Positions 20,116 to 20,529 of a stretch of DNA of 64,000 nt are shown one piece after another. The stretch's first letter is position 1. Each line of letters opens with the position of its first letter. Under the pieces are notes generated by a model, which searched no databases, had not been told where the DNA came from, and saw only the letters and a list, made by a program, of their open reading frames with translations. The translations under genes were made by a program, and so were the position numbers. The stretch lies in the NCBI RefSeq assembly GCF_054482525.1, contig NZ_CM137006.1; one strand, given 5' to 3'.

Positions 20116-20454
20116 ATGTAAATTATCAATAAAAGGCGTTATTTCATTATTATTTATAATGAGTTATGAGTATTTATTTTATTACGGTTGGTAGGAATAT
20201 ACAAAAAGTATTTTTTCAGTTGGTTCGCTATTTTAAAAAGGAATTCATATAAGAAATAAAAAATAAGTATGTTATTTATTGGTAGATTGAATTGACAGGG
20301 TGCAGAAATCTGAGGGTAAGAAAAATCAGCAACAACAATTCACTACATCAACAGACCAGCAATCGAGTGCCGCGATACGCTGGAAATACCCGCAGATTGA
20401 ACTGGCGGGTGGTGTGACTGGCATCAGTCAGTGATGACTTTTTAGCAAACTATG

Positions 20455-20488
20455 TTCGACCAGTCAGCATATTTACTGACTGGTCGAA
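20455..20488. repeat. Perfect 13-bp inverted repeat with 8-nt loop
   Basis: TTCGACCAGTCAG - CATATTTA - CTGACTGGTCGAA read directly from the sequence; lies 42 bp beyond the elaD stop in the elaD-yfbL spacer. Confidence 0.8.
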
Positions 20489-20529
20489 TTAATTGACAAT
20501 GATGTTAACTTACTCTTTTTCCTGATGCT

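Follow-up and report, generated by a model that had tools for sequence, protein, structure and literature searches.

The elaD-yfbL Locus

The window (the whole 64-kb stretch of DNA that was analyzed) is a 100% match to Escherichia coli PCN033 between positions 19100 and 21800. In this interval, elaD and yfbL are separated by a spacer of 414 bp, with 33.8% G+C vs. 51% for the window, much as the original prediction described it. In K-12, yfbK, a 1728-bp gene encoding a vWA-domain protein and convergent with elaD, is located between yfbL and elaD. The original prediction had placed yfbK here in K-12, and the gene is indeed found there; no intact copy exists in the window. With yfbK deleted, yfbL is now co-directional with, and downstream of, elaD. 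Features of the region are listed in Table 1.

Table 1. Features of the elaD-yfbL region, in window coordinates
Feature	Position	Strand	Description and basis
yfbL	19144-20115	-	M28 family metallopeptidase, 323 aa; ORF list and RefSeq annotation of the identical PCN033 sequence
Former divergent intergenic (promoter) region of yfbL and yfbK	20116-20248		AT-rich; K-12 alignment
yfbK pseudogene remnant	20249-20434 (186 bp)	+	BLAST to K-12, translations
RefSeq hypothetical protein WP_001328566.1	20300-20434	+	44-aa ORF, in-frame fusion of yfbK fragments
Short inverted repeat TGACTG-GCAT-CAGTCA	20415-20430	+	Within the last yfbK codons (...GVTGISQ, then stop)
Perfect 13-bp stem with 8-nt loop	20455-20488 (arms 20455-20467/20476-20488)		Inverted-repeat search and folding
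elaD	20530-21729 (ORF); 20505-21729 (by homology)	-	ElaD/SseL deubiquitinase, 35% G+C

ElaD was assigned by NF008812 (E=1e-129). Homology with K-12 puts the end of elaD at 20505; one additional T at 20533-20538 (T6 in the window vs. T5 in K-12) moves the stop to 20530, and PGAP labels the gene as frameshifted. Internal stops or frameshifts are also found in elaD of other strains, such as B-3008 and STEC17-183, and the gene is often a pseudogene. On its other side, the gap between elaD and rbn (L002, the K-12 region, ~5800-5835; window ~21880-21915) holds, just downstream of rbn, a GC-rich hairpin, ACAGGGC-AAGTTTC-GCCCTGT, with TTTTT after it on the + strand. The U-tract of this hairpin is on the strand opposite rbn and elaD, and the hairpin is possibly a further two-way terminator, bounding the elaD segment on this side.

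An IS200-type element occupies 17816-18526, directly after the nuoN terminator hairpin, and carries a Y1 transposase ORF (17904-18413, + strand; PF01797, E=5e-38). It is absent from the RefSeq PCN033 record NZ_CP006632.1, and the window is therefore PCN033-like rather than identical to that record. In the window (with the IS200 element between them), O157:H7, and the B2 strain 3385, nuoN directly adjoins yfbM. Extra genes are present between the two (window 17761-18537; L002 1-940) in K-12, which has yfbN, and in WL297, which has unnamed hypothetical-protein genes. The gene content between nuoN and yfbM is another presence/absence polymorphism at the locus.

A Remnant of yfbK

Alignment with K-12 identifies the spacer as a collinear yfbK remnant, left by two old in-frame internal deletions plus further decay. 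The start codon has changed from ATG to ATA and is followed by ~44 N-terminal codons with two stops. The 3′ part consists of IRWKYPQ and then the final 12 codons of the gene with their native TGA (20432-20434). At junction 1 (20374/20375), 1323 bp or 441 codons are gone, and at junction 2 (20395/20396), 213 bp or 71 codons. WL297 has junction 1 in common with the window and keeps 49 bp more at junction 2, which indicates that the remnant is eroding stepwise. The ORF annotated as WP_001328566.1 is most likely not a gene.

The yfbK deletion is a common polymorphism, carried by about half of complete E. coli genomes; the window-type deletion spacer was found at a coverage of at least 80% in 2579 of 5426, O157:H7 among them. 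Papers naming yfbK that were returned by a literature search do not mention it. In O157:H7, the annotation of yfbL (L004 1860-2477) is that of a frameshifted pseudogene; its alignment to yfbL of the window is limited to the 3′ 384 bp, corresponding to the C-terminal part. Both members of the yfbL-yfbK pair are therefore decayed in that strain, and its elaD is intact. The intergenic region and the 5′ remnant of yfbK (20116-20374) show 71-78% identity between the allele classes K-12/B2, PCN033/O157, and WL297, and the adjacent yfbL body shows 95-97% identity between the same classes. The divergence of 20116-20374 reflects either fast decay of the pseudogene or a deep coalescence tied to the indel.

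The short inverted repeat near the end of the remnant had also been noticed beforehand. It exists, one base away from the place given for it (about 20416-20431), and its K-12 version is TGACTG-ACAT-CAGTCA. The core that it was said to share with the larger palindrome is real as well (7 nt in common), but a match of this length is within chance for palindromes ~40 nt apart. That the short repeat is yfbK coding sequence had escaped the original prediction, as had the nature of the spacer and the frequency of the deletion.

The 13-bp Palindrome

A perfect inverted repeat of 13 bp had been described at 20455 to 20488 and is present at those coordinates. Its arms, TTCGACCAGTCAG and CTGACTGGTCGAA, are 100% complementary, with 8 nt between them. 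The accompanying claim that such a palindrome is unlikely by chance is borne out: among 5000 first-order Markov simulations of the spacer, none reached a 13-bp perfect inverted repeat (loop of 3-20), and the probability of one of at least 10 bp was 0.013. Folding z-scores against shuffles are -6.6 on the + strand and -7.0 on the - strand, with centroid energies of -23.6 and -25.4 kcal/mol, respectively. RNA in the elaD sense (- strand) can form 15 pairs with a 4-nt loop by way of one extra A-U and one G.U pair.

The stem is 20 nt past the yfbK stop, 16 nt past the K-12-equivalent elaD stop, and 41 nt past the stop of the window ORF. In K-12, the hairpin (L002 4402-4435) is 20 nt from the yfbK stop (4381) and 16 nt from the elaD stop (4452), central in the 70-bp gap between these two convergent stops. 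The sole difference between the K-12 and window hairpins is the last loop base, which is G in the former and A in the latter. In the K-12 type, the loop ends pair as well, giving a 15-bp stem with the loop TATT. The G>A change of the PCN033 type creates a C.A mismatch on the + strand; on the elaD-sense strand the loop is still closed, by a G.U pair.

Judged from these alignments, the palindrome is the native stem-loop of the yfbK/elaD convergent junction, here standing beside a decaying yfbK remnant. We regard this anatomy of the spacer and its hairpin as close to certain. It is the stem-loop that E. coli ordinarily has at this junction, and the finding is unremarkable.

Distribution of the Hairpin

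A 70-mer of the hairpin was found in 4201 of 5426 complete E. coli genomes, which is near the number of genomes (4150) that cover at least 80% of a yfbL-elaD query. The two BLAST places obtained per genome are the two strands of one palindrome. A common repeat family had been raised as a possibility; instead, the palindrome occupies one locus per genome, with no further copy in the 64-kb window. The single locus and the lack of a REP consensus likewise speak against membership in REP/BIME or interspersed repeats.

In strain 3385, the one B2-type strain examined, elaD and the hairpin are both missing. Here 144 unrelated bp stand in for K-12 positions 4355-5847, a stretch with elaD, the two palindromes, and the final 27 bp of yfbK; homology to K-12 breaks off 27 bp ahead of the yfbK stop and picks up again at the rbn stop. 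The elaD-less junction of 3385 is found in 915 of the 5426 genomes (B2-type). Since the hairpin accompanies elaD and is missing where the examined strain lacks the gene, and elaD has a G+C content of 35% vs. 51% for the window, the hairpin belongs to a variable elaD segment. This segment was probably acquired horizontally, with the hairpin at its 3′ end. The yfbK-rbn gap of 3385 (L003 7364-7507) has a different yfbK C-terminus (...AKDLDNSQN, then stop) and a REP-like palindrome, TCTGTTTGCC...GGCAAACAGA.

No elaD homologues outside E. coli were returned in a search of species representatives, which leaves the hairpin without a cross-species comparison. The GTDB representative of E. coli is, we take it, an elaD-less B2 strain, which is the likely cause of the empty ElaD search. 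The 10-bp core of the stem was scanned as the pattern GACCAGTCAG-N(3-12)-CTGACTGGTC over 100,044 species representatives. The scan gave 72 matches and no elaD-type hairpin outside E. coli. Matches include hairpins between ychH and dauA in Escherichia and C. koseri, and unrelated terminator-like hairpins in Proteus and Y. ruckeri that lie away from ychH. Also among them is a 31-nt perfect palindrome, GACCAGTCAGGTTTTnAAAACCTGACTGGTC, with many copies per genome in some Chloroflexi MAGs and single copies in several Bacteroidota (Algoriphagus, Flavivirga, Maribacter, etc.; L015-L021, L054-L064, and others). It looks like an interspersed hairpin repeat that, by its loop and flanks, appears unrelated to the E. 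coli hairpin.

Conservation and Covariation of the Stem

The stem is perfect in 4033 of 4200 hairpin records (96%), which comprise 3718 34-mers of the K-12 type and 315 of the PCN033 type, each at 100% identity. Among 100 hairpin-bearing sequences from metagenomes and genomes, recurrent polymorphisms sit in the loop and flanks. Within the stem of those 100, the one recurrent variant, found in three sequences, is a C>T change that leaves a G.U pair on the + strand; the others are singletons and the WL297 type.

The WL297/2013C-4282 type is a locally divergent allele, with 82% identity over ~100 bp around the hairpin vs. 95-98% in the flanking genes. Its stem differs from that of the window at 7 positions. 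Two compensatory pairs (A-U>G-C and C-G>A-U) are accompanied by three T>C changes that are mismatches on the + strand and G.U pairs on the - strand. Pairing is consequently 13/13 in elaD-sense RNA and 10/13 in yfbK-sense RNA. In simulations, the chance of 13/13 on a given strand after 7 random substitutions was 0.0003-0.003, and the observed covariation was matched in only 4 of 500 shuffles.

Other lineages vary in how pairing has fared. For instance, STEC17-183, in which elaD is a pseudogene and yfbK is deleted, has 3 uncompensated stem changes. The lineage of THO-008 and 19AR0646 has a C>T change that pairs on the yfbK-sense but not the elaD-sense strand, and yfbK of THO-008 was confirmed to be intact. 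Overall, ~7-8 wobble-preserving transitions favor the elaD sense and 2 favor the yfbK sense; with events not counted on a phylogeny, this strand bias toward elaD is suggestive only. Taken together, the substitutions speak for RNA pairing being under selection, mainly in the elaD transcript; the independent events are few, and the covariation comes essentially from one divergent lineage. Symmetric changes in a palindrome can alternatively arise from template-switch mutation, without selection.

A Putative 3′-End Hairpin

Most likely, the palindrome is an RNA-level 3′-end or terminator hairpin of the convergent-gene type. This reading is favored because of the position of the hairpin, its covariation at the RNA level, and the existence of a mapped analogue at ychH. 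On the same grounds, we infer that a terminator for elaD lacking a T-tract is the best supported of the meanings put forward in the original prediction.

Under the terminator reading, the palindrome would act as RNA, forming a 13-15-bp hairpin in the elaD transcript (- strand; -25 to -27 kcal/mol) 16-41 nt past the stop codon. The hairpin would define and protect the 3′ end of elaD mRNA, possibly by one of two routes. It could serve as a non-canonical, U-tract-poor terminator of the bidirectional type seen in convergent E. coli gene pairs, or as a block that halts 3′-5′ exonucleases after Rho-dependent termination further downstream. In genomes with an intact yfbK, the same hairpin would serve the yfbK transcript on the opposite strand. 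In the window, it would be the only terminator-like element between elaD and the co-directional yfbL.

As with intrinsic terminators, a stable stem-loop occurs soon after the stop codon. No U-tract follows the stem on either strand, where the tails are CAUAGUUUGC (elaD sense) and UUAAUUGACA (yfbK sense), and a consensus terminator scan requiring at least 5 T in 8 did not call the hairpin. It is therefore not a canonical intrinsic terminator. The best matches in Rfam 15 had E values of at least 1.2, far under gathering thresholds. The hairpin does lie between convergent genes in K-12-type genomes (yfbK + and elaD -, with stops 70 bp apart), the partner in the window being a remnant.

Term-seq tables for K-12 grown in LB and M63 (PMC7815308) list no 3′ end at the hairpin, elaD, or yfbK; both genes are likely poorly expressed in these media, and low expression alone may explain the absence. 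The same source places a Rho termination region inside elaD at 2383800 (+) in K-12. Many elaD transcripts may never reach the hairpin under those conditions, and the Rho region fits the view that elaD, as an AT-rich acquired gene, is silenced in laboratory culture.

An Analogous Hairpin at ychH/dauA

The hairpin between ychH and dauA (L077 1269-1294) has the same 10-bp stem core, the loop TTTGCG, convergent flanking genes, and no U-tract. The primary ychH 3′ end mapped by Term-seq is at 1259119 (+), 6 nt past the stem (Adams et al. 2021, PMC7815308, supplementary files 1 and 2). It was read as position 51 of the listed 61-nt string, a reading that was checked against a ychH-internal 3′ end at +32 from the ORF start. 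Another 236 nt past the ychH 3′ end is a Rho termination region (PMC7815308). Of 5426 E. coli genomes, 5421 have kept the ychH/dauA region, and the examined sequences of E. coli carry the hairpin, as do E. albertii, E. whittamii, and C. koseri.

The equivalent slot holds canonical terminators in Klebsiella and Enterobacter and a REP-like hairpin in Salmonella. Because these other genera have unrelated hairpins there, the slot appears to be a generic one for 3′ ends, and the core shared with the elaD hairpin is probably a coincidence. Homology of the two hairpins by way of a flanking 8-mer, AGCAAACT, was also considered; its side and orientation contradict a duplication or inversion, and it was taken as coincidence. 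We regard it as highly improbable that the U-tract-less hairpins with the core GACCAGTCAG/CTGACTGGTC at elaD/yfbK and ychH/dauA represent a sequence-specific class of 3′ ends with a dedicated RNA- or duplex-binding factor. The alternative is that two generic hairpins arose independently at these junctions.

Comparison with Known Systems

SEnd-seq work (Ju et al. 2019) describes hundreds of bidirectional terminators between convergent E. coli genes, unlike intrinsic terminators, and proposes that they act by polymerase collision at a stem-loop. The elaD hairpin resembles such bidirectional terminators (Ju et al. 2019; Wang et al., bioRxiv 10.1101/2022.10.23.513370) in being a symmetric stem-loop in the middle of a 70-bp convergent gap that has no canonical U-tract and could serve both strands. 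The window differs in its yfbK, which is reduced to a remnant; convergent transcription, and the collision that depends on it, may therefore be gone.

Intrinsic terminators share with the hairpin a stable stem-loop (-24 to -29 kcal/mol) located 16-41 nt from the stop. In contrast to them, the hairpin has no U run, and its stem is longer (13-15 bp) and less GC-rich (7/13). Hairpins that protect the 3′ ends of Rho-terminated transcripts were reportedly described by Dar and Sorek in 2018. As an example of protecting hairpins, that of ychH is alike in its 10-bp core, lack of a U-tract, and convergent setting, whereas its locus, loop, and flanks are different and the shared core may be coincidence.

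REP/BIME elements, which have been proposed as dual regulators in 3′ UTRs (bioRxiv 10.64898/2026.03.23.713779), are also extragenic palindromes between gene ends. The roles proposed for them, limiting read-through and stabilizing the upstream mRNA, are similar to those considered here, and B2 strains hold a REP-like palindrome in the equivalent yfbK-rbn gap. The elaD hairpin differs from REP/BIME in being single-copy and without the REP consensus.

Alternative Explanations

The hairpin could be a functionless passenger of the horizontally acquired elaD segment that persists as E. coli lineages are young. The low G+C content of elaD and its strain-variable presence fit such an origin, as do the lack of a mapped 3′ end at the hairpin in K-12 Term-seq and the frequent occurrence of elaD as a pseudogene. 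A mere passenger is nevertheless unlikely, since common polymorphisms fall in the flanks and loop rather than the stem, and WL297 has kept 13 pairs on one strand in ~100 bp of surroundings that are only 82% identical.

Another of the meanings proposed, a duplex-DNA site for a dimeric regulator, is very unlikely; each 13-bp arm would be one half-site. The perfect dyad symmetry and a stem that is near-invariant in 96% of genomes would suit such a site, and the same 10-bp core recurs at ychH/dauA. In addition, the arms hold GACCAG/CTGGTC, which is like half-sites of the FadR/LldR type (the LldR box is AAnTGGTCnGACCAnTT; PMC10272880). However, these half-sites are everted (GACCA...TGGTC, 18 bp apart) relative to a TGGTC-n-GACCA box, and the hairpin does not contain the 17-bp FadR/LldR-type box, in which inverted TGGTC/GACCA half-sites are 1 nt apart. 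The palindrome is also flanked by two stop codons, no promoter-like site is near it, and the WL297 arms are 10/13 complementary as DNA but 13/13 as elaD-sense RNA. Furthermore, the hairpins that fill the ychH slot in Salmonella, Klebsiella, and Enterobacter are unrelated. A literature search for the motif returned primers and unrelated matches, and no paper that ties it to a bacterial factor. An LldR gSELEX peak has been listed as elaD > yfbK > yfbL (PMC10272880). LldR binding at the hairpin was rejected, as the peak sequences fall ~1 kb away in the central part of yfbK (L002 3163-3394), a part missing from the window.

The palindromes are exceedingly unlikely to be a recombinase site, a subterminal hairpin, or a similar end mark of a mobile or recombination cassette that brought in elaD. 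The breakpoint between elaD-bearing and elaD-less alleles does precede the small palindrome by 8 bp and the large one by 47 bp, and an IS200-type element, of a class with hairpin ends, is present elsewhere in the window. Against a cassette, no matching repeat is found at the other end of the segment near rbn, the elaD segment has no transposase or integrase, and the palindrome is single-copy in every genome and was not found with elaD in other species representatives. A scar created by the yfbK deletion, which had been suggested as well and has nothing in its favor but nearness to the deletion, is refuted by the very test that the original prediction set for it: the hairpin is identical in K-12 and other yfbK-intact genomes, occurs without the window deletion allele in ~1600 genomes (with yfbK confirmed intact in K-12 and THO-008), and is at least 60 bp from the nearest of the two deletion junctions.

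Significance

The importance of the locus is small beyond annotation. The 44-aa hypothetical protein and the spacer are better annotated as a yfbK pseudogene remnant. In about half of complete E. coli genomes, the deletion puts elaD and yfbL in tandem with only the hairpin between them. For work on ElaD, the hairpin likely sets the 3′ end and stability of elaD mRNA and, under the terminator reading, would also govern how well yfbL is insulated from elaD read-through. The locus offers a clean natural case of a U-tract-less hairpin at a convergent junction that has been retained after the loss of one partner gene.
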